A stretch of DNA of 64,000 bases from Candidatus Omnitrophota bacterium (GTDB lineage: Bacteria > Omnitrophota > Gorgyraeia > Duberdicusellales > 4484-171), in assembly GCA_016935525.1 (NCBI GenBank), contig JAFGQU010000004.1, positions 65,314-129,313 of the forward strand, read 5' to 3'. Below, in pieces: positions 1,627 through 30,313 of the stretch (within the stretch, counting starts at the first letter, position 1; every line of letters begins with the position of its first letter). The translations under genes were made by a program, and so were the position numbers. A model generated the notes under the pieces. It worked only from the letters and a program-made list of their open reading frames with translations, was not told where the DNA came from and made no database searches.

Positions 1627-2583
1627 CTACAGTTTTATCTGAGCGATGACACTTTTAAGCGTTTCGGCCGAATGAACAAACGCTTCCTGTTCGAATCCGG
1701 AAAGTTCGAGTTTAAGGAAATGTGCTACTCCGCTTTTATTTACCAGCGACGGGATACCTATACACACATCGTTTACGCCGTGATAATCCGAAATCAACGT
1801 TGAGACCGGCAGTATCGAGTTTTCGTCACGCAGGACCGCTTCGGTGATCCGCACCAAGGCCAGGGCGATCGCGTAATATGTCGCGCCTTTGGCATCGATG
1901 ATCTTATACGCGGCGTTTTTCACTTCTTCAAATATCCCGTTTAATTTTTTCTGCTGGTCGCAATGATTAAAATTTTTACAGAGCGGGCAATATTTTTCGA
2001 TTTTCATCCCGCCGATATCGGCGTTGCTCCATACCGGAAGTTCCGTATCGCCATGTTCACCGATGATATAGGCGTGGACATTACGCGGGTCGACCTCACA
2101 GTGTTCGCTGATCAGGTAACGAAACCGCGACGTATCAAGTACGGTCCCGGAACCGAACACACGGTTTTTCGGTAAACCGGATATTTTTAACGTGGCGTAA
2201 GTAAGGATATCCACGGGATTGCTGACAACGAGGATCACCGCGTTTTTGGCGTATTTCATCACTTCCGGTATAATCTGTTTAAAAATCTCGGTATTGGCCT
2301 GGACGAGATCGACGCGGGACTGACCCGGTTTCTGTTTTGCCCCGGCAGTAATCACGACCAGATCGGAATCAGCACAATTTTTATAATCGCCATAATAGAT
2401 CTCAGCCGGAAAGGTGAGGCTTAACCCGTGGTTTAAATCCATACATTCGCCCATGGCTTTCTTTTCGTTTCTATCGACGATCACGATCTCGCGGGCAATC
2501 CCGCGAGTCATCAGCGCGAACGCATAGGTACTGCCTACATTACCGGCACCGATAATCGATACTTTCGGTCTGGATTTTTTCAT
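1627..2583 (-). CDS. ldh: L-lactate dehydrogenase (LDH/MDH family)
   Basis: N-terminal Rossmann motif IIGAGNVGS. The substrate loop reads GAKQKPGQSR, with Gln at the LDH specificity position. Catalytic His sits in IGEHGDTE. Length of 318 aa is typical. Confidence 0.8.
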   Translation of the reverse strand: MKKSRPKVSIIGAGNVGSTYAFALMTRGIAREIVIVDRNEKKAMGECMDLNHGLSLTFPAEIYYGDYKNCADSDLVVITAGAKQKPGQSRVDLVQANTEIFKQIIPEVMKYAKNAVILVVSNPVDILTYATLKISGLPKNRVFGSGTVLDTSRFRYLISEHCEVDPRNVHAYIIGEHGDTELPVWSNADIGGMKIEKYCPLCKNFNHCDQQKKLNGIFEEVKNAAYKIIDAKGATYYAIALALVRITEAVLRDENSILPVSTLISDYHGVNDVCIGIPSLVNKSGVAHFLKLELSGFEQEAFVHSAETLKSVIAQIKL

Positions 2584-2693
2584 AATTTCTCCTTCTCTTT
2601 TTACTCCCGGGGCCGTCCTTTTTCAGGAAAACACATTGTATGAAATGAGTACGGTGGCATTTTATCGGTTGATAAAACAACTTACAAGGATAT

Positions 2694-3656
2694 TTATTTT
2701 AATAACGGTTGAATGTAATTAAACAAATATCCGATGGCAACGATGCCCAACGCCGTGATCCCAAAGAATATCAGGATCAACCTCATCCGCATCGCCCGCC
2801 GCAAAAGTACTGCTTCGGGAAGGCTTAAAGCCGCCGTCGCCATCATAAAGCTGAGGGCTGTCCCCAGCGGAATACCTTTCTGAAAAAGTACGACCGCGAT
2901 CGGGACGATCGCCGCACAACTGCCGTACATCGGCACTCCCAGCACGGTCGCGATCAATACCGTAAACCCTTCGGTTTTACTGATAAGGGTCTCAACCATA
3001 TCCTGCGGCACGTAGTTATGGATAACCGCTCCCAACCCCACTCCGACGATGATCCATAGCCAGAGTTTTTTCACGATGGATATCGCTTCATTGATACCGA
3101 ATATTATTCTTGATTTAATCGTCGGAGTCGCCGCACAGGCACATTGAGGATTATTTACCTGTGCCGATATATCTTTCCTTATAAACCGGTCAAGGTTCAT
3201 TTTTCCGAGAATAATCCCTACCATTACTCCGATAAGGATACCGCTTAAAGTATACAGCAGTGTGATCTTCCAGCCGAAAAATCCCAGCATCAGTACCACA
3301 AGGTACTCATTGATCAACGGAGAAGTGATAAGAAACGAAAAGGTGACTCCCAAAGGTATTCCCGCTTCCAGAAATCCGAAAAATATCGGGATAGAAGAAC
3401 AGGAACAGAACGGAGTGACCGCGCCAAACATCGAAGCAAATACATGGCCGAACATACCGCGACGCGCGATCCACTCTTTGATCTTTTGCGCCGACAGATA
3501 ACTGCGGATAAACCCGATAACGGAAATCATCACAAAAAGCAGCAGGATGATCTTGATCGTATCATAGACGAAGAAATGAAGCGGTTCGGCGAACGTGCTT
3601 TCCGGATCGAACCGCAGGACCGAATAGAGCAGCCAGGTTATGAATTCCGATAACAT
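2694..3656 (-). CDS. DUF318/ArsP-like permease with conserved TPFCSCS motif
   Basis: About 8 TM polytopic protein. It carries the AVTPFCSCSSIP motif, which matches the TPFCSCS signature of ArsP-family organoarsenical/thiol permeases, plus a second Cys pair (PQCACAATP). Confidence 0.55.
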   Translation of the reverse strand: MLSEFITWLLYSVLRFDPESTFAEPLHFFVYDTIKIILLLFVMISVIGFIRSYLSAQKIKEWIARRGMFGHVFASMFGAVTPFCSCSSIPIFFGFLEAGIPLGVTFSFLITSPLINEYLVVLMLGFFGWKITLLYTLSGILIGVMVGIILGKMNLDRFIRKDISAQVNNPQCACAATPTIKSRIIFGINEAISIVKKLWLWIIVGVGLGAVIHNYVPQDMVETLISKTEGFTVLIATVLGVPMYGSCAAIVPIAVVLFQKGIPLGTALSFMMATAALSLPEAVLLRRAMRMRLILIFFGITALGIVAIGYLFNYIQPLLK

Positions 3657-3677
3657 ATCTCTCCTCTTATTGTTATT

Positions 3678-4382
3678 TTATATCATTTCTAAAAACAAGC
3701 TAGATTTCTCTTTAGAAATAATCTTTCCATCCTGAAGAAAGATCGTACGGGATGCCTGTAACCCCAGTTTAGGATTATGAGTCGCAACGATTATCGTCAA
3801 TCCGTCTTCTTCGTTCAGTTTTTTGAAAATAGAAAATATTTCCTGCGCGCTTTTAGTATCAAGGTTTCCCGTCGGCTCGTCGGCAAGAAGCAGTTGAGGG
3901 GAAACCGCAAGCGCCCGGGCAATCGCTACCCGTTGACGTTCGCCGCCCGATAACTGTTTAGGCAGATGATTGATCCGGTGGCCTAATCCTACCCTTTCCA
4001 TAATCTCAAGAGAATGTTTCCGTTCTTTCGTCATACGGGAAAAATGGAGCGATAATTCGACATTTTCCAGAGCGGTGAGGCTAGGAATAAGTAAAAATTC
4101 CTGAAAAATAAAACTGATAATTCCCCTACGGTATTTCACAAGATCGTTCTCTCGGGCACAAGACACCTCATTCCCCAATACTTCTAACCGGCCACAACTC
4201 ACACTGTCTAAACACCCCATAAGGTCCAATAATGTCGTTTTCCCCGAACCGGACGGCCCCATTAATGAGACAAACTCACCGCATCGTATTTCAAGATCGA
4301 TATTGTTGACCGCATAGATTTCTTCAGCAAATAATTTATATATCTTAGTAAGATTATTCGCTTTGATAACCGGGGTACTCAT
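3678..4382 (-). CDS. ABC transporter ATP-binding protein (MacB/LolD-type)
   Basis: Walker A GPSGSGKTT, ABC signature LSGGERQRVAIARAL, Walker B LLLADEPTGNLD. Confidence 0.85.
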   Translation of the reverse strand: MSTPVIKANNLTKIYKLFAEEIYAVNNIDLEIRCGEFVSLMGPSGSGKTTLLDLMGCLDSVSCGRLEVLGNEVSCARENDLVKYRRGIISFIFQEFLLIPSLTALENVELSLHFSRMTKERKHSLEIMERVGLGHRINHLPKQLSGGERQRVAIARALAVSPQLLLADEPTGNLDTKSAQEIFSIFKKLNEEDGLTIIVATHNPKLGLQASRTIFLQDGKIISKEKSSLFLEMI

Positions 4383-4384
4383 CT

Positions 4385-5569
4385 TTACTCTCCTCGCCTT
4401 ATCGCTTCGATCGGGCGCATCGACGATGCTCTTAATGCCGGATATATTCCGGCAACTAAACCCATAATAATTGCCCCCATAAATGAACTCAGCAAGAGGC
4501 CACCGGTAATAACCACCAGATGACCGCTGGGAGCGTAAGGCAGGATACCGCGTAACATATGTTCCACCAATCTGGCGGCGATTATCGCAAAAAGATTACC
4601 CATTATTCCTCCCCACACACAGATCAAGGTAGTCTCAATCCAGATAATCCGGAAAATATCAAACCGCGATGCGCCAATGGCTTTCATCACTCCGATCTCT
4701 TTTGTCCGCTCGAATACCGACATGAGTATCGTATTTACCACACCGATCACGGCAACAAATATTGCGATGATCGCTATAGAATTGGTCATCACTTTTGCCG
4801 AAGATATCAGATTGAAGATCGTACCGCGTACCTCGGCCATACTTATTACCTGAATCCCGGGTTCATCATAGAGATCTTCTTCAAAACCGGCAATCTGGCT
4901 TATTTCTTTCAATTTTATGCCGATACCGGTGAGCTGGTCCGGTAAACCGAAAATATTCTGGGCAGTGACAAGCGGTAAAAAAATAAGCCCGTCATCCTGA
5001 GTCCCGGTACGTTCGAAGATACCGGCGACCGTAAGGATTTTTTCAATACCCGGGATGAATATTTTATCGCCGATCGAACGTTGTTCGAATTCGGCCGCTT
5101 CATATCCCATAATCACTTCTTCAGCATCGTCTTGAGAAAACCAGTTTCCCGATTTGAATTTTATCCACGGTTTTAAATCAAGAAACGAACGGTGTATGCC
5201 CATATAGAGAGCCAGTCCTCCCTGCCCGTTGTTTTTATCAGGATCATACACGGTATGGACCAGTTGAGGGGTAATCGCCGCGACCCGGGGATCATTGATA
5301 ATCTTGCTATACACCTCTTGATCCATATACCTCAGGCCCCCGCCGCCTTTAAGCATCAGCGTTGCCGCCTCATAAGGGCATCCTTTCGCTGTAATCAACA
5401 CCTGAAATCCCATTTTATCAATATCGCTGCGTAATCCCCGTTGATATCCTTCATCAAAACCCATAAGGCTCACCAGTACCGCGACTGCGACTCCCACCCC
5501 GCCGACAGTCAAAAATGACCTGATCTTTTTCCTTTGTAGATTCTTGAAGGCGATTGCGATAGATTTCAC
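4385..5569 (-). CDS. ABC transporter permease, FtsX/MacB-like
   Basis: N-terminal TM helix, a large periplasmic domain and a C-terminal FtsX-type 3-TM bundle. Its stop abuts the ATPase start. Confidence 0.8.
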   Translation of the reverse strand: MKSIAIAFKNLQRKKIRSFLTVGGVGVAVAVLVSLMGFDEGYQRGLRSDIDKMGFQVLITAKGCPYEAATLMLKGGGGLRYMDQEVYSKIINDPRVAAITPQLVHTVYDPDKNNGQGGLALYMGIHRSFLDLKPWIKFKSGNWFSQDDAEEVIMGYEAAEFEQRSIGDKIFIPGIEKILTVAGIFERTGTQDDGLIFLPLVTAQNIFGLPDQLTGIGIKLKEISQIAGFEEDLYDEPGIQVISMAEVRGTIFNLISSAKVMTNSIAIIAIFVAVIGVVNTILMSVFERTKEIGVMKAIGASRFDIFRIIWIETTLICVWGGIMGNLFAIIAARLVEHMLRGILPYAPSGHLVVITGGLLLSSFMGAIIMGLVAGIYPALRASSMRPIEAIRRGE

Positions 5570-5937
5570 TGTAATTCTACTCCTTGGCCGATCAGAGACG
5601 TATTTCCGGTACGGGCACTTACCGTGCCCTGGACAACCACCTTTTTCCCGACCATCTGGGGAATAGCGAATCCCGAAGGTTTAATATCCACATAGATCTC
5701 TCCGGTCGTATCGTTAAGATTAAACCAACATCCCGACGGGCATTCCCGTACGATCTTCCCGGAAACCGTAACGGTCTTACCGCTAAGTTCTCCCGGATTA
5801 CTGAGAATATTTCTTATCGGTACCGAAGTATACTCTGTAATCGGTTCACCGAACGATTCCGAAGAAACATTCGTAGTACACCCTATAATCAAAATTATAC
5901 CTGTAAATAAAGCTAAAAGATACGTTACCTGTTTCAT
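5566..5937 (-). CDS. small lipoprotein with predicted OB-fold and CPSGC motif
   Basis: Lipobox LIIGC. Beta-rich 123 aa protein with a CxxxC pair. Has 4-nt overlaps with both neighbouring genes. Confidence 0.5.
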   Translation of the reverse strand: MKQVTYLLALFTGIILIIGCTTNVSSESFGEPITEYTSVPIRNILSNPGELSGKTVTVSGKIVRECPSGCWFNLNDTTGEIYVDIKPSGFAIPQMVGKKVVVQGTVSARTGNTSLIGQGVELQ

Positions 5938-6584
5938 GGCCTCTCTCCTTTTTCCACTTTTCCTATACGGCTATTTTGCATACCGTCAAAATAAAACGCG
6001 TCTAAAAGAATAAGATTTTTCTTGATCCCCCGCAACGTATTGAAAAAATCTTCAGTCTCTCCCGGAGTCGGTTGTTTAATTTTTTCCAGCATATCCTGCC
6101 GATATAAGTCTTCTAAACCAAGACCGATGAATTGTTGAGTAAATGATTCATCCCGAAAGTACCGCGCCTGGGGCGAAGATATTCTTTGATAATAAAAATC
6201 TACTATGTTTCCCTCAAGATCGGTCGCAAGAATGATCTGTATCCCGCCGTAAGCCCCTTTTTGATTTATCCCGTGTACCCGGCCGATGACCTCTTTCCCT
6301 TTCAATACATCATAATAGGCATACGGGACATCTTCGGCTTCATAGACCGGATCCAACCGGTCATTAAGAAGCGATTCTACTTTCTTCTTTAATCCTTCTC
6401 GCCCGGCACCCTCTATTGTATGGAAGCTGGTCTTATATCCGGTACTTTCAGGGAAAATACGGCGGAGGTCCCGCTCGGGATCGTTTAAAGTGCATCCTAC
6501 CGCGGCACTGGCCGAATAAGTGATCAACAGGATACCTAAACTAATAAAGACCGTGATTACAGATTTGAAGGAATTAACCGCCAT
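5934..6584 (-). CDS. secreted FMN-binding-domain-like protein
   Basis: Signal peptide or lipobox (AAVGC). The central GINQKGAYGGIQIILATDLEGNIVDF segment resembles the FMN_bind fold. I did not find the canonical flavinylation motif (S/T)GAT. Confidence 0.4.
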   Translation of the reverse strand: MAVNSFKSVITVFISLGILLITYSASAAVGCTLNDPERDLRRIFPESTGYKTSFHTIEGAGREGLKKKVESLLNDRLDPVYEAEDVPYAYYDVLKGKEVIGRVHGINQKGAYGGIQIILATDLEGNIVDFYYQRISSPQARYFRDESFTQQFIGLGLEDLYRQDMLEKIKQPTPGETEDFFNTLRGIKKNLILLDAFYFDGMQNSRIGKVEKGERP

Positions 6585-7584
6585 AATAATAATATTGCAC
6601 TAACACGCTTGTATCAGCCGGCTCATCTACACGATTGAAATCATGGACTAATGCCGCTCTTAACGTAATATTCTCATTTACACGATACGCCAACCCCAGA
6701 CTGATAAGAGAATCATCCTGATTTTGTTCAGCCAGATCGTGAGCGAACGATTGAAACTGTATTTGAAAACTCAGATTTTGATTGCGCGGTAACGTATAAT
6801 CGTATTCTAAAAGATACCCTAATACCTCATCAGAATCATCCTGTCCATACGCTATTTCCCCTTTCACCAGGGAAGCCCCCATCAGTAATTGGCCGTCAAC
6901 ACCGATCCGTCTCTTCGATACCGCAGATTCCGAAAGAAGTCGGTTATGAGGAAACGTCTGCATCCCTTTTACATCGATCACGTCGCCATAGAGGATTGAG
7001 AACCCGTATTGCACATTTTCCGTCGGCGGCGTACCGACCCGCGCGCTCATTAAAAAACTTCTATCATGACGCCTCAGGCTCATTCCCGAACCGACTCCCA
7101 GAGCAAGTTTATAATCATACTTTCTCAAAAAACCTTCCAACGCCATACCCCAATCTTTCTTAAACCCGATATTCAACGGAGCTAACGTCTGTAACACAGT
7201 CCCGTGAGTATCGATTACGGGTTCAAGCCCGAACGCCGGATCGAAATGGCCGATTCTTAAATTCATTCCGTATCCCAATCGATATTGCATCCAGGCATTA
7301 TGCAGCTCGACGGCCCAGGCATCACGAGAATCCTCCAAGCTGTCATAAGAAAAACGTACCTGAAGGTCGGTGGTAAGAAAATCACCGTATTCACCGGAAA
7401 ACTTTCTAAAATCTTCAAAACCAAAAGAATTAGCCAGGGTACTGCTCTTTCCCGTCCATTGCTGTTGACGGCTGTATCCGCCGATAAGGTTGATCTCTTT
7501 ATTAAAAATCCGTTCCGAACCAGATACGGTATCTCCATTTATAAACCAGGCTGCCACCATAACAAATAACACGAAGGATCTCAT
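6574..7584 (-). CDS. outer-membrane beta-barrel protein
   Basis: Signal peptide followed by an alternating hydrophobic, aromatic-rich beta-strand pattern. Has a 4-nt overlap with csoR upstream. Confidence 0.45.
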   Translation of the reverse strand: MRSFVLFVMVAAWFINGDTVSGSERIFNKEINLIGGYSRQQQWTGKSSTLANSFGFEDFRKFSGEYGDFLTTDLQVRFSYDSLEDSRDAWAVELHNAWMQYRLGYGMNLRIGHFDPAFGLEPVIDTHGTVLQTLAPLNIGFKKDWGMALEGFLRKYDYKLALGVGSGMSLRRHDRSFLMSARVGTPPTENVQYGFSILYGDVIDVKGMQTFPHNRLLSESAVSKRRIGVDGQLLMGASLVKGEIAYGQDDSDEVLGYLLEYDYTLPRNQNLSFQIQFQSFAHDLAEQNQDDSLISLGLAYRVNENITLRAALVHDFNRVDEPADTSVLVQYYYYGG

Positions 7585-7865
7585 AACCGATGTAATTTTT
7601 GGACCACTCCGATAAGCTCTTCGATCTTCTTTTTCTTGTTTTTTTCCGCTTTACCGCGAAAGGTATCTACCACGCACGATTCGATATGGGTATGCAATAT
7701 CTTTTCGGCGACCCGATACAGCGCGTTGATCGAAGCATGGATCTGATTGACGATATCGATACAATATTCTTCTTTTTCGATCATCCGCTGGACACCTTTC
7801 ACCTGTCCCTCAATACGCCGCAACGCGGCAAGTTGTACCGTATGAGTCGTTTTTTGTTTCATCAT
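7581..7865 (-). CDS. csoR: CsoR/RcnR-family metal-sensing transcriptional repressor (copper-type C-H-C ligand set)
   Basis: 94 aa predicted helical-bundle protein. It carries Cys (EEYCID) and the HTHIESC motif, giving the x-C-H-C copper-ligand pattern of CsoR. Confidence 0.75.
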   Translation of the reverse strand: MMKQKTTHTVQLAALRRIEGQVKGVQRMIEKEEYCIDIVNQIHASINALYRVAEKILHTHIESCVVDTFRGKAEKNKKKKIEELIGVVQKLHRL

Positions 7866-7886
7866 CGATCTCCCCCTTTTATTTGT

Positions 7887-8429
7887 TTATTCGTCCACTA
7901 TTAATTTTGCCTTCATCTGGCTATGCCCCCGGCCACAGTATATCGAACATAAAACAGGAAATTCTCCGGTCTTATCGGCGACGAACTCGATTTTTTTCAC
8001 CTCACCTTTCTTCACCGTTGCGTTAATCCCATATTCTCCGATATACACTCCATGCGGGACGTCACGCGAGGTAGCCATCAGGCATACGATATCCCCTTTA
8101 TTGACAATTATATCCTGGGGTTCATATCCGAACCGGTAAGCTTGAAACGGTATTTCTTTTATCTTGGAAATATACTTTTCGGGATCTTCTTTGAATTTCC
8201 CGATACACATCGGGCAGCAGAAATAATACGTTTTACCTTTATAGGTATAAGAATATTCTTTCTGAGCCTCACCGCCCATTACCGGACAGATGCCCAAATC
8301 ATTCTCCGCCGACGGCGTCCCCATCTGATGAGCCATCCCCTGCCCCATCTCTTCACCATGATGATCTTGAGCCGTTACGCTTAAAGCCCCCAGACAAAAC
8401 AAGCCGATTAAAAAAATAACCTTTTTCAT
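7887..8429 (-). CDS. secreted YHS-domain + CuA-like cupredoxin copper-binding protein
   Basis: Signal peptide. YHS/TRASH motif CPVMG...YYFCCPMC. C-terminal cupredoxin region with H...[12 protein letters not shown], which matches the CuA pattern CxxxCGxxHxxM. Confidence 0.7.
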
Positions 8430-8444
8430 ACATATCCCCCCTAC

Positions 8445-8480
8445 GCAAGCCTATCATACCCCCTGGGGGTATGTCAATGA
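8445..8480 (-). promoter_or_regulatory. sigma70-like promoter overlapped by a perfect CsoR-type operator palindrome (ATACCCCC-N-GGGGGTAT)
   Basis: On the sense (minus) strand the sequence reads TTGACA-taccccc(a)gggggtatga-TAGGCT, then AGGGGGA RBS, then ATG at 8429. The 8+1+8 palindrome lies at 8456-8472. Confidence 0.55.
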
Positions 8481-8511: not shown

Positions 8512-9156
8512 TCAATGCTCATGACGGATACTTTCAGGGTTTTTCACAAAAAAAAGAGGAAAGACGATATCGCTTACGCAACAGGGCACCCATACCGCAA
8601 TAAATAGGAATAAGAATATCGCGGCATAAGCAAAAAAACTCACCGTCGCTCCTTTCGCCATGAGAATATGGAACAACGAAGCTGCGGTACTGACCAGAAC
8701 GTGGGCAAAATGAGGGAATTTGGTCGCGGGGTTGATATAGGCGATCATAATACCGATAAGCGCCATAGTCGTAATCAGCCACCATCTCTCGAGAAATCCG
8801 ATATGAGCATGCCGGTGCGGCATATCCAACAATACTTCTCCTATATAAGGCATGATCGAATCGCTTACCGTCGCAACTCCGATCGAACCTACATAGCCGA
8901 TTACCAACAACACAAAAAGGTTACAGTGACGCCGGTTATGGGGACAGACATGACGGTGGTACATCGAAGCGGTCACAAGAGCACTGAGGAGTACGTGAGC
9001 CGGATGGAATACGTAAAAGAATTCGTAAGAGACCTCGGGAGTGATGTTACGTAAGAATGCGATCAACCCGATGCCTAATAACGCTCCTAATGCCGTAAAC
9101 GGAGCATGATGACGTAATTCTTTGACGATCTCTCGGAACATAACGGTAGTGCTCAC
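8512..9156 (-). CDS. His/Cys-rich integral membrane protein (putative metal handling)
   Basis: 5-6 TM helices with clustered His/Cys (HRHVCPHNRRHC, MPHRHAHIGF, VPCCVSD). Its start overlaps the glgP stop. Confidence 0.45.
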   Translation of the reverse strand: MSTTVMFREIVKELRHHAPFTALGALLGIGLIAFLRNITPEVSYEFFYVFHPAHVLLSALVTASMYHRHVCPHNRRHCNLFVLLVIGYVGSIGVATVSDSIMPYIGEVLLDMPHRHAHIGFLERWWLITTMALIGIMIAYINPATKFPHFAHVLVSTAASLFHILMAKGATVSFFAYAAIFLFLFIAVWVPCCVSDIVFPLFFVKNPESIRHEH

Positions 9157-11630
9157 TTATGATAAGGGACGCGCCATATTTCTTTGGCGTATTCGGCGAT
9201 AGTCCGGTCGCTGGAAAACCGTCCGGCTTTAGCGACGTTGACGATACTCTTTTTCGTCCATTCTTCCTGATCCAGATAACATTGCGAGACTTTCTGCTGC
9301 ATTGCCAGATACGAATCGAAATCGGCACAGATCATAAACTTATCGTCACTTTCCAGGGATTGAATAATCGGTTCAAAGATACCGGGATTATAGGGAGCAA
9401 AAAAATTCGTCCGTAACAGATGGAATATATCGCGCAGTAACGGTGATTTCTGGATAGAATCATGAGGATTATACCCTTGCCGTTTTAGCGTCGCGACTTG
9501 TTCGGCAGTATGCCCGAAAATAAAAATATTGTCGCGGCCGACTTCCTGAGAGATCTCGACGTTTGCCCCGTCAAGCGTCCCGATAGTGAGCGCTCCGTTC
9601 AGCATAAACTTCATATTCCCGGTACCGGAAGCTTCGTATCCGGCAGTCGAGATCTGTTCGGACACATCCGATGCCGGAAATATTTTTTCCGCCAAGGATA
9701 CCCGGTAATTTTCCAGAAACGCCATACGCAGTTTATCTTTTATCGATTTATCCCGGTTGATCATATCGGCGATACTGGTCAGGAACTTTATAGTCAACTT
9801 TGCCATGACGTATCCCGGAGCGGCTTTTCCGCCCACCAGAAACGTCCGGGGATACACGAATTTTTTCGGGTCGTGTTTAAGCAGTAAATATTGCGATACG
9901 ATATAAAATCCGAAAAGGATCTGGCGTTTATACTCATGCATCCGTTTCACCTGCACATCAAAGATAGATTCCGGGTCGATCATGATCTCGGTTGTACGGG
10001 CGATATATTCGGCAAGTTTCTTTTTATTCTCATGTTTGATGTCCCGCCAGGCCTTGCGGAATGGAGCTTTGTCTTTATACGGGATCAATTTACTTAATTG
10101 CGACAGATCGATCACCCATTTGTCACCGATGGTATTGATGATCAGGTCCGACAAACCGGTATTGGCTTTCAGTAACCAGCGGCGTTGAGTGATCCCGTTC
10201 GTTTTATTATTGAATTTTTTAGGGAAAAATTCATAGAAATCGCGGAAGACCCCGGTCTTCAATAGTTCGGTATGTAATTCCGATACCCCGTTTACCGAAT
10301 GGCTTCCCACAATCGCCAGGTTCGCCATGCGGATCCGTTTATGGTCGCCTTCCTCGATGATCGACATCCTGGCGATACGGCCTTCATCGCCGGGAAACCT
10401 TTGCGAAACTTCTTCGAGGAACCGTTTATTGACCTCATAGATAATCTGCAGGTGTCGCGGCAATAGATTCTCCAGACGCGCCACCGACCATTTCTCCAAA
10501 GCTTCCGGCATCACCGTATGGTTAGTATAGGCAAATATCTGCACGACAATATCCCACGCTTCTTCCCATTGAAAATCGCTCTCATCAAGTAAAATACGCA
10601 TTAACTCGACGATACCCAAAATCGGGTGGGTATCGTTAAGTTGAATCGTCACTTTATCCGGCAGTTTAGACAAGTCTTCGTTTTTGACCCGGAACCGGCG
10701 GATAATATCGGCAATGGATGCGGCGACAAAAAAGTATTCCTGTTTAAGGCGAAGTTCTCTCCCCTGGCTGATATCGTCCATGGGATACAATACTTTGGAG
10801 ATGTTTTCCGAAAGGATCTTTTCATGTACGGCCTGTTCATAGTCGCCCTGATTAAAATATTCCAAATCGAATTCTTCGGTACTGCGTGCCGACCATAACC
10901 GCAACGTATTGACTACATCGTTCTTATATCCGGGGATCGGATAATCATAGGGCACCGCGAGGATGTTCTGGGTATCGACCCAATCCACACAAAACCGGCC
11001 GTGACGGTCTTTATACATCTGGGTCCTCCCGTAAAATTTTACCCGTACGGTATACTCCGGCCGGGCAAATTCCCAGGGGCTTTCCCGCCGTAACCATTCA
11101 TCAGGCAGTTCTATCTGAAACCCGTCTTTTATCTTTTGATGAAAAATACCGTAATCGTAACGGATACCATATCCGTATCCCGGGATGCCTAACGTCGCCA
11201 TCGAATCAAGAAAACAGGCGGCAAGCCGGCCTAATCCGCCGTTACCTAACCCGGCATCGAGTTCCTGCTGGCGAACCTCCTCAAAATTAAGGCCCAGTTC
11301 CGTAAGAGCCTGCGCGGTTTTATTCTCTAATCCCAGATTGAAAATATAGTTCCCCAAAAGCCGGCCGATTAAAAATTCCATTGAAAGATAATAGACCCGT
11401 TTCACATTCGCTTTATGATAATGCTGTTGAGTGTTGATCCAACGTTCCACTACCCGGTCACGGACAGTGAGCGCTAATGCTCGGAAATTGTCTTCCAGCG
11501 TCGCGCTGTATTGGTCTTTGGAAAGGGCATATTTTAAGTTGGCGCAGAATGAGGTCACAATACCTTCAACGGTATTTTTTTTACTGATCTCATCGCATTT
11601 TTCCTCTAGTTTTTTATTCATTTTTGCCAT
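9153..11630 (-). CDS. glgP: glycogen/alpha-glucan phosphorylase
   Basis: PLP-lysine motif EASGTGNMKFMLNGALTIGTLDGANVEI. About 825 aa from the internal Met (MAKMNKK). The ORF as reported extends to 11705. Confidence 0.9.
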   Translation of the reverse strand: MAKMNKKLEEKCDEISKKNTVEGIVTSFCANLKYALSKDQYSATLEDNFRALALTVRDRVVERWINTQQHYHKANVKRVYYLSMEFLIGRLLGNYIFNLGLENKTAQALTELGLNFEEVRQQELDAGLGNGGLGRLAACFLDSMATLGIPGYGYGIRYDYGIFHQKIKDGFQIELPDEWLRRESPWEFARPEYTVRVKFYGRTQMYKDRHGRFCVDWVDTQNILAVPYDYPIPGYKNDVVNTLRLWSARSTEEFDLEYFNQGDYEQAVHEKILSENISKVLYPMDDISQGRELRLKQEYFFVAASIADIIRRFRVKNEDLSKLPDKVTIQLNDTHPILGIVELMRILLDESDFQWEEAWDIVVQIFAYTNHTVMPEALEKWSVARLENLLPRHLQIIYEVNKRFLEEVSQRFPGDEGRIARMSIIEEGDHKRIRMANLAIVGSHSVNGVSELHTELLKTGVFRDFYEFFPKKFNNKTNGITQRRWLLKANTGLSDLIINTIGDKWVIDLSQLSKLIPYKDKAPFRKAWRDIKHENKKKLAEYIARTTEIMIDPESIFDVQVKRMHEYKRQILFGFYIVSQYLLLKHDPKKFVYPRTFLVGGKAAPGYVMAKLTIKFLTSIADMINRDKSIKDKLRMAFLENYRVSLAEKIFPASDVSEQISTAGYEASGTGNMKFMLNGALTIGTLDGANVEISQEVGRDNIFIFGHTAEQVATLKRQGYNPHDSIQKSPLLRDIFHLLRTNFFAPYNPGIFEPIIQSLESDDKFMICADFDSYLAMQQKVSQCYLDQEEWTKKSIVNVAKAGRFSSDRTIAEYAKEIWRVPYHK

Positions 11631-11717
11631 AGGGCTCCTTCTCTCAGCCGGCACCTTCATCCGGTACCAGCATATTATTATATGGCAGAAAGCGGTATCT
11701 GCCAATTATTCTGATTT

Positions 11718-28784: not shown

Positions 28785-29177
28785 TCACTTTTGATCCATA
28801 CTTAAATTCCCGCCGCCGAAAAGCAATAATGTAAACAGGCTCATTAAAATGACCAATACATACTCGTATCCCCCGTCGGCGAGAAAAAACCCATGGATCA
28901 GATGGACCTTCGCCATAGCGATTAACATCACTCCCGTCAAGAGTAACGCGCTCAACCGGGTGAACAGGCCCAGGATAAGAAAAATCCCGCCGATAAATTC
29001 TACATAGGCAACGACAAATGCCAATGGCCCGGCCATCGGAAACCCTAAATCCGTCAGCATTTTAGTGAATCCGGCAATCCCGGGTCCGTCAAACATTCCA
29101 AACGCCTTCTGTAAACCATGCAGAATAAATATCGTACCTAACCCTAATCTGATCGGAAATACCGCCCATTCTTTCAC
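28785..29177 (-). CDS. DoxX-family membrane protein
   Basis: 130 aa, 4 TM, with the DoxX-like helix pattern. Has a 4-nt start/stop overlap with the upstream oxidoreductase. Confidence 0.65.
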   Translation of the reverse strand: MKEWAVFPIRLGLGTIFILHGLQKAFGMFDGPGIAGFTKMLTDLGFPMAGPLAFVVAYVEFIGGIFLILGLFTRLSALLLTGVMLIAMAKVHLIHGFFLADGGYEYVLVILMSLFTLLLFGGGNLSMDQK

Positions 29178-30313
29178 TTTCTACCTCCTGTTATAAGATG
29201 GTGAATAATCCCCCATTTATTTTTCATCCCGTAACTCCGGTATATACTTAAAATATAATGTAAAAACATTCCTATCCTTCCTTTTACTTTTACGCCTAAA
29301 GCAACTCCATAGGCACGATCATTCGCCAGAGGCACTACATAACCTAAATCACAAGGCTGATAAGGGATTAACCTCTGATCCTGTATACTGCGGATCAGAT
29401 TGCGCCCGGCGCATTGTCCTTGGGTGACCGCCGCCTGTACCGATAATCTCAAAGGGACTCCGTGATATTCAAAATAAGCGGTATCGCCGGCAACAAAAAT
29501 GTTTTCCCGGCCCTCAAGACGCAAATACCGATCGACCGGCAGCCGGTTCTGCGGTAACTTCTGAGCGGTAAGCCCCGCGCAAAAAAAAGGCGTACGCACC
29601 CCGCTTACCCATAAAAACATCGCATCTTCAAAGACTTGGCCGTCAGATAATTCTATCCTTTTATTTTGACAATCTTTTACGGTAGCGTTATAGATACGGC
29701 CGATTTTCAGCTGGTCCAAGTTCCGTTCTACATGTTTTTTTATCCACTCCGGCAACGGCCCCAAAAGCGAAGAAGTTTTCTCTACAATCGTTATAGTTTT
29801 ATTTTGGTTATTTCGGTCCAAATACGCCCTTATATTGGTAGCAAGTTCAATACCGGTATACCCTCCTCCGGCAATAATAAACCGGGAATATTCGTTCCTT
29901 TTTAAAACCTCAACGATTTTTTTTACCTCATCGATATCATTAAATGTATACGCTTGTTCTTTCAATACGTCGTTTCCGTAAAAATTAGTGACTGTTCCCG
30001 GAGAAATGATCAGGTAATCATAATCCAATTTTCCCTGACGCATCTCCAAGATAGATTTTTGCGTATCAATGGCAATAACCTCGTCGCATACAAAGCGCGC
30101 CCGGCAATCTCCGGCAATCTTCGCCAAAGGATATTGAAGATACCGGGCCGGGATCCTTTTTCCGATAATATCGGGTAATAACGGCAAAAACTGGGAAGAA
30201 CGACGTGTATCGACAAGGGTTATTTCTAAATCGGTAGGGGTGCTCCGCGCGAGCGTTTTTAACGCATTGATACCGGCAAACCCGCCGCCGACGATAACAA
30301 CTTTTTTACTCAT
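29174..30313 (-). CDS. FAD-dependent pyridine nucleotide-disulfide oxidoreductase (NDH-2 / sulfide:quinone oxidoreductase type)
   Basis: Two dinucleotide-binding motifs: VVIVGGGFAG and FIIAGGGYTGIE. Confidence 0.75.
   Translation of the reverse strand: MSKKVVIVGGGFAGINALKTLARSTPTDLEITLVDTRRSSQFLPLLPDIIGKRIPARYLQYPLAKIAGDCRARFVCDEVIAIDTQKSILEMRQGKLDYDYLIISPGTVTNFYGNDVLKEQAYTFNDIDEVKKIVEVLKRNEYSRFIIAGGGYTGIELATNIRAYLDRNNQNKTITIVEKTSSLLGPLPEWIKKHVERNLDQLKIGRIYNATVKDCQNKRIELSDGQVFEDAMFLWVSGVRTPFFCAGLTAQKLPQNRLPVDRYLRLEGRENIFVAGDTAYFEYHGVPLRLSVQAAVTQGQCAGRNLIRSIQDQRLIPYQPCDLGYVVPLANDRAYGVALGVKVKGRIGMFLHYILSIYRSYGMKNKWGIIHHLITGGRK

Follow-up and report, generated by a model that had tools for sequence, protein, structure and literature searches.

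What is a CuA-type cupredoxin domain doing in a small exported protein whose gene leads a copper-sensing operon? CuA centres occur in heme-copper oxidases and in nitrous oxide (N2O) reductase. In Candidatus Omnitrophota bacterium (GenBank assembly GCA_016935525.1, contig JAFGQU010000004.1, positions 65,314 to 129,313 of the forward strand; this whole stretch of 64,000 nucleotides is called the window), a single gene joins such a domain to a YHS/TRASH metal-binding module in a secreted protein of 180 amino acids (aa). We consider it reasonably probable that this fusion protein buffers copper at several sites in the periplasm and hands it off, a role comparable to those of CopI and CusF. The four parts of the protein are a Sec signal peptide, a His/Met-rich tail, the YHS/TRASH module, and a 92-residue cupredoxin, and they are encoded as follows.

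7887-8429, minus strand: secreted YHS-CuA cupredoxin fusion gene, 180 aa, with its stop codon at 7887-7889
8367-8429, minus strand: Sec-type signal peptide, residues 1-21, read by eye from the sequence, with cleavage before QD
8295-8366, minus strand: disordered His/Met-rich tail, residues 22-45, with predicted local distance difference test (pLDDT) values below 50 at residues 20-41
8166-8294, minus strand: YHS/TRASH metal-binding module, residues 46-88, from Pfam YHS and the pattern C48-X22-C71(C72)-X3-C75 plus M51 and M74
7890-8165, minus strand: CuA-type cupredoxin domain, residues 89-180, from Pfam COX2, PDB sequence alignment, and Foldseek
8052-8054, minus strand: codon of CuA ligand H126, from alignment to the Thermus ba3 CuA domain
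7914-7949, minus strand: ligand loop C161-S-I-Y-C165-G-R-G-H169-S-Q-M172, from the same alignment

The architecture had been proposed in a model-generated reading of the DNA made from its letters and open reading frames (ORFs), here called the sequence-only reading. The ORF it had singled out is confirmed, with 180 aa on the minus strand, and translation of 8166-8294 and 7914-7949 reproduces all the motifs it quoted. The N-terminus reads as Sec-type by inspection, in agreement with the signal peptide it had claimed; neither a twin-arginine motif nor a lipobox is present, and all homologues have a hydrophobic N-terminus equivalent to this signal peptide. A protein identical to that of the window has been recorded as a "YHS domain-containing protein" from a Candidatus Omnitrophica metagenome-assembled genome (MAG). 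An AlphaFold2 model of the fusion protein, computed with 109 homologues as input, has a mean pLDDT of 84.9, and confidence exceeds 90 at residues 45-180 and falls below 50 at residues 20-41.

Sequence and structure both place the C-terminal domain among CuA domains. The Pfam COX2 periplasmic domain (PF00116) matches residues 87-173 with 29.0 bits against a gathering cut-off of 22, and the Cupredoxin_1 match is below threshold. A phmmer search of PDB sequences gives an ungapped 85-residue alignment with the ba3 oxidase CuA domain from Thermus thermophilus (E = 6e-14; 2cua and 2lln), in which DVPHG lies opposite DVIHG and the ligand loop of the window protein lies opposite CNQYCGLGHQNM. In this alignment H126, C161, C165, H169, and M172 fall on the five side-chain CuA ligand positions, which upholds the CuA ligand pattern that had been read from the letters. 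The ligands are conserved among the 109 homologues, with C161, C165, H169, and M172 invariant and H126 at least 90% conserved, and the full pattern H-X34-C-X3-C-X3-H-X2-M is found in all 102 scored family members. When the AlphaFold model is searched against the PDB with Foldseek, Thermus CuA domains rank first (root-mean-square deviation, rmsd, of 0.8-1.0 Å over 92 columns, 30-34% identity) and CuA domains of the N2O reductase NosZ come second (rmsd 1.8 Å). Superposition on 2cua and 6pty is free of gaps at 0.8 Å over all 92 columns, which places the domain in the Greek-key cupredoxin fold. The overlay on COX2 and NosZ CuA domains that the sequence-only reading had proposed therefore places the ligands together by homology: because the model superposes gaplessly on solved CuA domains, its His, Cys, and Met ligands occupy known ligand positions. 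The best homologues are copper proteins rather than non-copper ones, a point on which that reading had staked its assignment. The window domain counts as a genuine CuA-type cupredoxin, and its site may be a purple mixed-valence CuA centre. The resemblance to known CuA enzymes is confined to this domain. The NCBIfam models for L-NosZ, Sec-type NosZ, CoxB, and nitrosocyanin are matched solely in their C-terminal CuA regions, far below full-length cut-offs (59.6 vs 700 for L-NosZ, 48.7 vs 625 for Sec-type NosZ, and 40.8 vs 147.7 for CoxB).

The preceding module is also recognizable. Pfam YHS (PF04945) matches residues 56-88 with 45.3 bits against a cut-off of 30.3, accompanied by weaker matches to TRASH families, and translation of 8166-8294 yields the CPVMG...YYFCCPMC segment that had been called a YHS motif. 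Across 109 sequences, C48 and C75 are invariant, C71 and C72 are at least 90% conserved, and a C-X19-23-C-X3-C spacing is kept in 107 of 109 homologues. TRASH-type ligands are described as conserved Cys (or Asp) residues with the spacing C-X19-22-C-X3-C, and copper binding by YHS domains is documented only indirectly (PMC4626032); the YHS module of the window protein is a putative copper site. Between the signal peptide and this module lies the tail, whose sequence varies among family members and whose composition sets it apart, with a His plus Met content across the family of 20% vs 4.2% in the folded body, a five-fold difference.

The gene is preceded by an 82-nt gap that contains a -35 hexamer, an operator, and a -10 hexamer, and it is followed by a gene for a copper-sensing repressor.

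8472-8477, minus strand: -35 hexamer TTGACA of the operon promoter, by direct reading of the sequence
8455-8473, unstranded: CsoR operator, a perfect 19-bp palindrome CATACCCCC-T-GGGGGTATG with 9-nt arms that are 100% complementary and carry C/G tracts
8457-8471, minus strand: TAC-N9-GTA core inside the operator, coding strand TACCCCCAGGGGGTA, by direct reading of the sequence
8448-8453, minus strand: probable -10 hexamer TAGGCT, 18 nt past the -35 and three bases past TACCCCCAGGGGGTA
7581-7865, minus strand: CsoR-family Cu(I)-sensing repressor, 94 aa, Pfam Trns_repr_metal 87.6 bits

The published CsoR operator motif, 5'-TAC-X9-GTA-3' with G-tracts, is matched by the palindrome in the window (PMC3902906). 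TAGGCT agrees with the -10 consensus at three of six positions, which is why a generic promoter scan missed this promoter. To place it among its relatives, a scan of one genome per GTDB species is available that confirmed 226 related stretches, of which the best 80 loci were kept (labelled L001 and so on), as well as a seed-based census over the fetched loci, aimed at efflux-related families, that counts 36 distinct ORFs with both motifs. Homologues in L001, L004, and L006 are likewise preceded by a TTGACA that directly adjoins the operator and lies 18 nt from a -10 hexamer, which reads TATACT, TATATA, and TATAAT, respectively. An operator-like motif occurs at most 200 nt upstream of 10 of the 36 fusion genes, where about 0.2 would be expected (background of 0.005 per 200 nt). 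The csoR gene starts 21 nt downstream of the fusion gene and encodes a CsoR/RcnR-family protein with the Cu(I)-sensor ligand signature C35/H60/C64; the best NCBIfam match of its product is the copper-sensing RicR model, below cut-off (65 vs 175). Since the fusion gene leads a tightly packed run of genes past the operator and csoR comes next, its description in the sequence-only reading as the first gene of a CsoR operon is correct.

Fusions of this kind are widespread, and most of them keep similar company. A word-indexed search returned 147 clusters of the same architecture at 51-65% identity, all with generic names only, and their named sources are Omnitrophota, Elusimicrobiota, and Patescibacteria. 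The 80 kept loci, all from MAGs, are mostly of Omnitrophota and also include Elusimicrobiota, Ratteibacteria, Saganbacteria, Ignavibacteria, and Victivallales. Genes for resistance-nodulation-division (RND) pumps with outer-membrane factors (OEP) and membrane-fusion proteins (MFP), for CopA, or for MacB are found no more than 7 kb from 32 of 36 fusion genes, across several phyla, and CsoR is nearby in 15 of 36. Precomputed Pfam annotations or called-gene tables are available for seven loci and show a recurring order of fusion gene, DoxX or a ~240-aa membrane protein, CsoR, outer-membrane factor, membrane-fusion protein, and RND pump, and an alternative order of CopA (with YHS and HMA domains), fusion gene, and 240-aa protein; a CusF-family domain is not listed in these seven. 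The RND pumps of relatives pass the CusA/CzcA heavy-metal model (1040 bits vs 701), and their ATPase passes the copper P1B model. In some Cus-type operons the modules are split, and a secreted YHS-only gene adjoins a gene for a secreted or lipoprotein CuA-only protein.

L039, 6776-7654: split YHS-only and CuA-only gene pair
L045, 7860-8788: split YHS-only and CuA-only gene pair
L058, 7863-8642: split YHS-only and CuA-only gene pair

Every split-module protein carries a separate signal peptide and His/Met-rich stretch, and the occurrence of the modules in both split and fused forms indicates that YHS and CuA modules are functionally tied. Upstream of CopA in two loci (L003 3206-5285 and L009 3726-5296) are genes for a fusion of YHS to a pyridine-nucleotide-disulfide oxidoreductase (~351 aa), a stand-alone YHS protein of 51-58 aa, and a P-II protein. 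With a YHS-flavoprotein reductase encoded beside a copper ATPase, there may be one more component of copper or thiol redox chemistry. Full-text literature searches yielded no paper on the combined YHS and CuA cupredoxin architecture.

Because the gene belongs to a copper-sensing efflux operon, its product most likely deals with toxic copper and does not serve respiration. As a copper buffer and hand-off factor, it would act as follows. Cytoplasmic Cu(I) would free CsoR from the operator that overlaps the promoter, so that the fusion protein is made and then exported through Sec to the periplasm. There, the disordered His/Met-rich tail may catch Cu(I) or Cu(II), the Cys-rich YHS/TRASH module would bind Cu(I) via thiolates, and the C-terminal cupredoxin would take two copper ions as a thiolate-bridged pair of the CuA type. 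If occupied together, these sites could sequester several copper ions per molecule. Cu(I) would then be handed to an envelope exporter encoded in the same operon, which in most relatives is a CusCBA-type RND pump or CopA and in the window a MacB-type ATP-binding cassette (ABC) system accompanied by an OB-fold lipoprotein and a protein resembling porins. We count in favour of this account the domains, their ligands, the fold, the CsoR operator, the efflux context, the lack of a listed CusF-family domain in the seven annotated loci, the split versions, and the His/Met-rich tail, which recalls the His/Met regions with which CopI captures copper.

The predicted recipient of copper in the window is encoded by the rest of an eight-gene operon headed by the fusion gene, in which neighbouring genes overlap by 4-11 nt or are separated by 2-21 nt.

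6574-7584, minus strand: porin-like secreted beta-barrel protein, 336 aa, Pfam Porin_4 21.6 bits (below cut-off), whose start overlaps the csoR stop by 4 nt
5934-6584, minus strand: secreted 216-aa protein, operon member, with 57% identity to the syntenic gene of L055
5566-5937, minus strand: DUF4920/OB-fold lipoprotein, 123 aa, Pfam DUF4920 26.5 bits against a cut-off of 25
4385-5569, minus strand: MacB/FtsX-type ABC exporter permease, Pfam MacB_PCD and FtsX
3678-4382, minus strand: ABC transporter ATPase, Pfam ABC_tran
2694-3656, minus strand: ArsP_1-family permease, with which the tightly packed run of the operon ends, Pfam ArsP_1 219.5 bits

Past the ArsP_1 permease, a 110-nt gap separates the operon from a lactate dehydrogenase gene; genes of the ArsP type also close homologous efflux operons in L015, L020, L029, and L044. 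The exporter module of the window (2694-7584, minus strand) is thus a MacB/FtsX-type ABC system instead of a Cus-type RND pump or CopA, and a recognizable membrane-fusion protein was not found in it. A copper exporter of the MacB type would be unusual. It recurs in L055, where positions 1976-6856 contain the whole downstream module of the window (CsoR, porin-like, 216-aa, DUF4920, MacB, and ABC proteins) at 40-73% identity; the porin-like gene has the same position there (47% identity), and the gene ahead of the module encodes a YHS-only protein, which stops at the linker. The DUF4920 lipoprotein has an ECPxGCWFNL motif, which is ECPSGCWFNL in the window and ECPTGCWFNL in L055, and its OB fold and Cys-x-x-Cys-Trp motif within a copper operon recall CusF, which has an OB fold and a cation-pi Trp. 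By this analogy, the lipoprotein may be a metallochaperone of the MacB-type pump. Searches of Pfam, NCBIfam, and PDB sequences matched nothing to the 216-aa protein. Its segment GAYGGIQIILATDLEGNIVDFYY may recall the core of flavin mononucleotide (FMN)-binding domains of the RnfG/NqrC/NosR type, with no flavinylation motif; since neither profiles nor PDB sequences support it, a diverged FMN-binding domain is not claimed.

On the other side of the operator, immediately upstream of it, a gene at 8512-9156 (minus strand) encodes a His- and Cys-rich polytopic membrane protein of 214 aa, and its start overlaps the stop of a glycogen phosphorylase gene (9153-11705) by 4 nt. The closest relative, L010, has a 76%-identical counterpart in the same position (7275-7916). 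Pfam, NCBIfam, and PDB sequences gave no match to this protein either, and it was considered and dismissed as a counterpart of the ~240-aa partner of relatives, to which it has no similarity.

Membrane partners and stand-alone relatives bear on whether the cupredoxin stores copper or moves electrons. Directly downstream of the fusion gene is a gene for an RnfD-like protein in 18 of 36 cases, which often overlaps the cupredoxin gene by a few bases, or a gene for DoxX in 4 of 36. CuA-only cupredoxin genes have the same partners.

L004, 8537-9259: ~240-aa RnfD/NqrB-like partner
L007, 8534-9271: ~240-aa RnfD/NqrB-like partner
L003, 8522-9235: ~240-aa RnfD/NqrB-like partner
L009, 8546-9295: ~240-aa RnfD/NqrB-like partner
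about 20 further loci: ~240-aa RnfD/NqrB-like partners

Pfam NQR2_RnfD_RnfE (cut-off 27.7) matches the ~240-aa partner with scores as high as 29.7 bits, and a 10-sequence profile of it matches RnfD of PDB entry 9eri (E = 0.004) in the N-terminal half. Its alignment contains the conserved motifs H-I-F-N-P-A-N and M-L-I-E-P-K-T-S-G; by eye, neither a flavinylation motif of the SGAT type nor a conserved Cys/His/Met cluster is seen in it. The DoxX partner is weakly similar to the DoxX-type HvfX of copper-binding ribosomally synthesized and post-translationally modified peptide (RiPP) systems. The gene in the window has neither an RnfD-like nor a DoxX neighbour, and the only DoxX-like ORF in the window is a weak match 20 kb away at 28788-29180. 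A search with the cupredoxin domain alone against 1.84 billion cluster representatives returned 4,331 matches at E <= 1e-3 and 1,440 at E <= 1e-10. Among the best 149 representatives, 144 keep C-X3-C-X3-H-X2-M, and most are proteins of 120-200 aa with a signal peptide or lipobox and one cupredoxin, without YHS. Some have two or three cupredoxins in tandem (P0121, P0127, P0144, and P0149 among P0121-P0269). The YHS-CuA fusion is thus a single branch within a large family whose members stand alone and carry the canonical CuA motif; literature searches found no experimental paper on that family.

Several of these observations weigh against the protein being a copper buffer. A canonical CuA site is built for electron transfer and not for labile metal exchange; a redox centre, more than a sink, would explain why the H/C/C/H/M set stays invariant throughout a very large family; and CupA, a true chaperone of this fold, has drifted to a site of Cys and Met only. 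A polytopic RnfD-like or DoxX protein is the next gene in 22 of 36 cases, and a simple soluble buffer needs no such partner. In L055, a MacB-type operon with the YHS module only implies that the cupredoxin is dispensable for that exporter. To these points we add that ligand co-location in the model follows from gap-free superposition rather than from distances and that all carriers are uncultured MAGs. Much of this would be expected if the fusion protein were instead a copper redox module, in which a CuA centre interconverts periplasmic Cu(I) and Cu(II) held at the tail or YHS sites, either oxidizing Cu(I) independently of oxygen or reducing Cu(II) to feed a Cu(I)-specific pump, and trades electrons with the membrane by way of the RnfD-like or DoxX protein or, in the window genome, of another partner. 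The full CuA ligand set of 144 of 149 best wider-family representatives and of 102 of 102 fusions is consistent with this, as are the position of the RnfD-like or DoxX gene, directly downstream and often overlapping, and the similarity of the partner to RnfD in both the Pfam and the 9eri comparisons. The current model of CopI also proposes Cu(I) oxidation at its cupredoxin centre (PMC13308877). Conversely, the gene in the window lacks either neighbour, the RnfD-like partners as aligned lack an SGAT-type motif or a conserved Cys/His/Met cluster, and no electron donor or acceptor was identified. In addition, these phyla typically live in anoxic habitats, where most copper is present as Cu(I) to begin with. 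We regard a redox role, the main rival reading, as possible though unlikely. A broader form of it, that fused and stand-alone canonical-CuA cupredoxins with translationally coupled RnfD-like or DoxX partners are together an oxygen-independent periplasmic copper oxidoreductase and the first natural soluble canonical CuA proteins, is doubtful. If true, the oxidoreductase would prepare Cu(I)/Cu(II) for efflux in phyla that are anaerobic and mostly uncultured, and it would be a third biological use of CuA after cytochrome oxidase and N2O reductase.

Two further explanations fare worse. Instead of detoxifying copper, the protein could be a metallochaperone or maturation factor for another cuproenzyme, such as an oxidase or N2O reductase encoded elsewhere in the genome, or a periplasmic copper sensor. 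Its best NCBIfam matches at the domain level are indeed the CuA domains of L-NosZ, NosZ, and CoxB, and periplasmic copper chaperones for CuA assembly are well known (PMC7558416). Against this, no cox, nos, sco, or PCuAC gene was seen, a statement that covers the seven Pfam-annotated loci, other loci having been scanned for efflux-related families only. Derepression through CsoR at high copper follows the logic of detoxification rather than copper supply, and the fusion protein has retained a CuA site that is complete in itself, which known chaperones have not, making such a role improbable. Very improbable is a respiratory electron-transfer role in which the gene, beside csoR by chance, encodes a NosZ fragment or a heme-copper oxidase subunit II that is degenerate or stands alone, even though Pfam COX2 scores above its cut-off and the closest solved structures are ba3 subunit II and NosZ. 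The scores for CoxB, NosZ, and L-NosZ are far under full-length cut-offs; there is no transmembrane hairpin, subunit I gene, or beta-propeller CuZ domain; and no oxidase or nos gene is present in the window operon or listed in the seven Pfam-annotated loci. Identification as a COX2 subunit or NosZ fragment is rejected on architecture, family cut-offs, and context. The absence of a hairpin, of subunit I, and of the NosZ catalytic domain, together with the low full-length scores and a copper-efflux context in 32 of 36 fusion genes across several phyla, supports the view, already expressed in the sequence-only reading, that the protein is not part of a respiratory complex.

A periplasmic copper buffer that hands its cargo to an exporter remains the role we favour, and the locus matters under more than one outcome. 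That copper can induce a periplasmic cupredoxin is an established general theme. PmoD is a recent, non-canonical exception to the respiratory confinement of CuA centres (PMC6189053). From its sequence, the domain described here would be a complete canonical CuA domain that is exported in a small and soluble form, fused to a second copper module, and tied to a copper sensor and copper exporters, in a fusion that is found again in many genomes of species from Omnitrophota, Elusimicrobiota, and the uncultured phyla around them. Bioinorganic chemists would be surprised by a soluble, canonical CuA protein that occurs naturally and is linked to copper detoxification. A real site would provide them with such a protein for study and would give these organisms a copper-tolerance component in the niche of CusF and CopI, under conditions that bar oxygen-dependent multicopper oxidases from working. 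Were the domain to do no more than store copper, an electron-transfer site would have been re-used as a metal sink, as in CupA.

Comparison with known systems indicates what is shared and what is particular to the window protein. With the CuA domain of Thermus ba3 subunit II (2cua, 1ehk, and 2lln), it shares the fold (rmsd 0.8-1.0 Å), 34% identity in an ungapped alignment, and the pattern H-X34-C-X3-C-X3-H-X2-M, along with a similar ligand loop. It differs in lacking both an N-terminal membrane helix and a partner oxidase subunit I; a signal peptide, a His/Met-rich tail, and a YHS module are joined to its domain instead, and its gene belongs to a CsoR-controlled efflux operon. CusF, the periplasmic Cu(I)/Ag(I) chaperone of CusCFBA, is an OB-fold protein with a Met2-His-Trp site, and its fold and ligands are unrelated to those of the window protein. 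What CusF and fusions of this kind have in common is that each is a small periplasmic protein encoded inside a CusCBA-type operon, CusF having this niche in cusCFBA (PMC7558416). Similarity to CupA of Streptococcus pneumoniae (4f2e and 2mry) is not significant at the sequence level (phmmer E = 0.09). CupA serves the cytoplasmic face of CopA. It likewise adopts a cupredoxin-like fold, contains a binuclear copper cluster bridged by Cys, and belongs to a copper-regulated export operon in which Cu(I) is handed to the exporter (PMC7558416). It differs in its ligands, which are Cys and Met only, and in being membrane-anchored, whereas the window protein is Sec-exported and keeps both His ligands. 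CopI of Rubrivivax gelatinosus, Vibrio, and Pseudomonas is, like the window protein, a periplasmic cupredoxin linked to copper stress with extra sites in disordered His/Met-rich segments (PMC13308877; PMC7558416), and it is pictured as a modular periplasmic copper buffer that is important under low oxygen and possibly oxidizes Cu(I) (PMC13308877). By description, it is set apart by a mononuclear green type-1.5 His-Cys-His-Met site, in place of a binuclear CuA motif accompanied by YHS, and by a His/Met-rich region that is internal rather than N-terminal. PmoD of methane and ammonia oxidizers is also a non-respiratory cupredoxin with a CuA-type centre and a genetic tie to copper-dependent physiology, but its site is formed across a homodimer by non-canonical ligands, whereas the window protein has the canonical set in one chain (PMC6189053). 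Its ligand layout places one His in an early loop and the other four ligands in the last loop.

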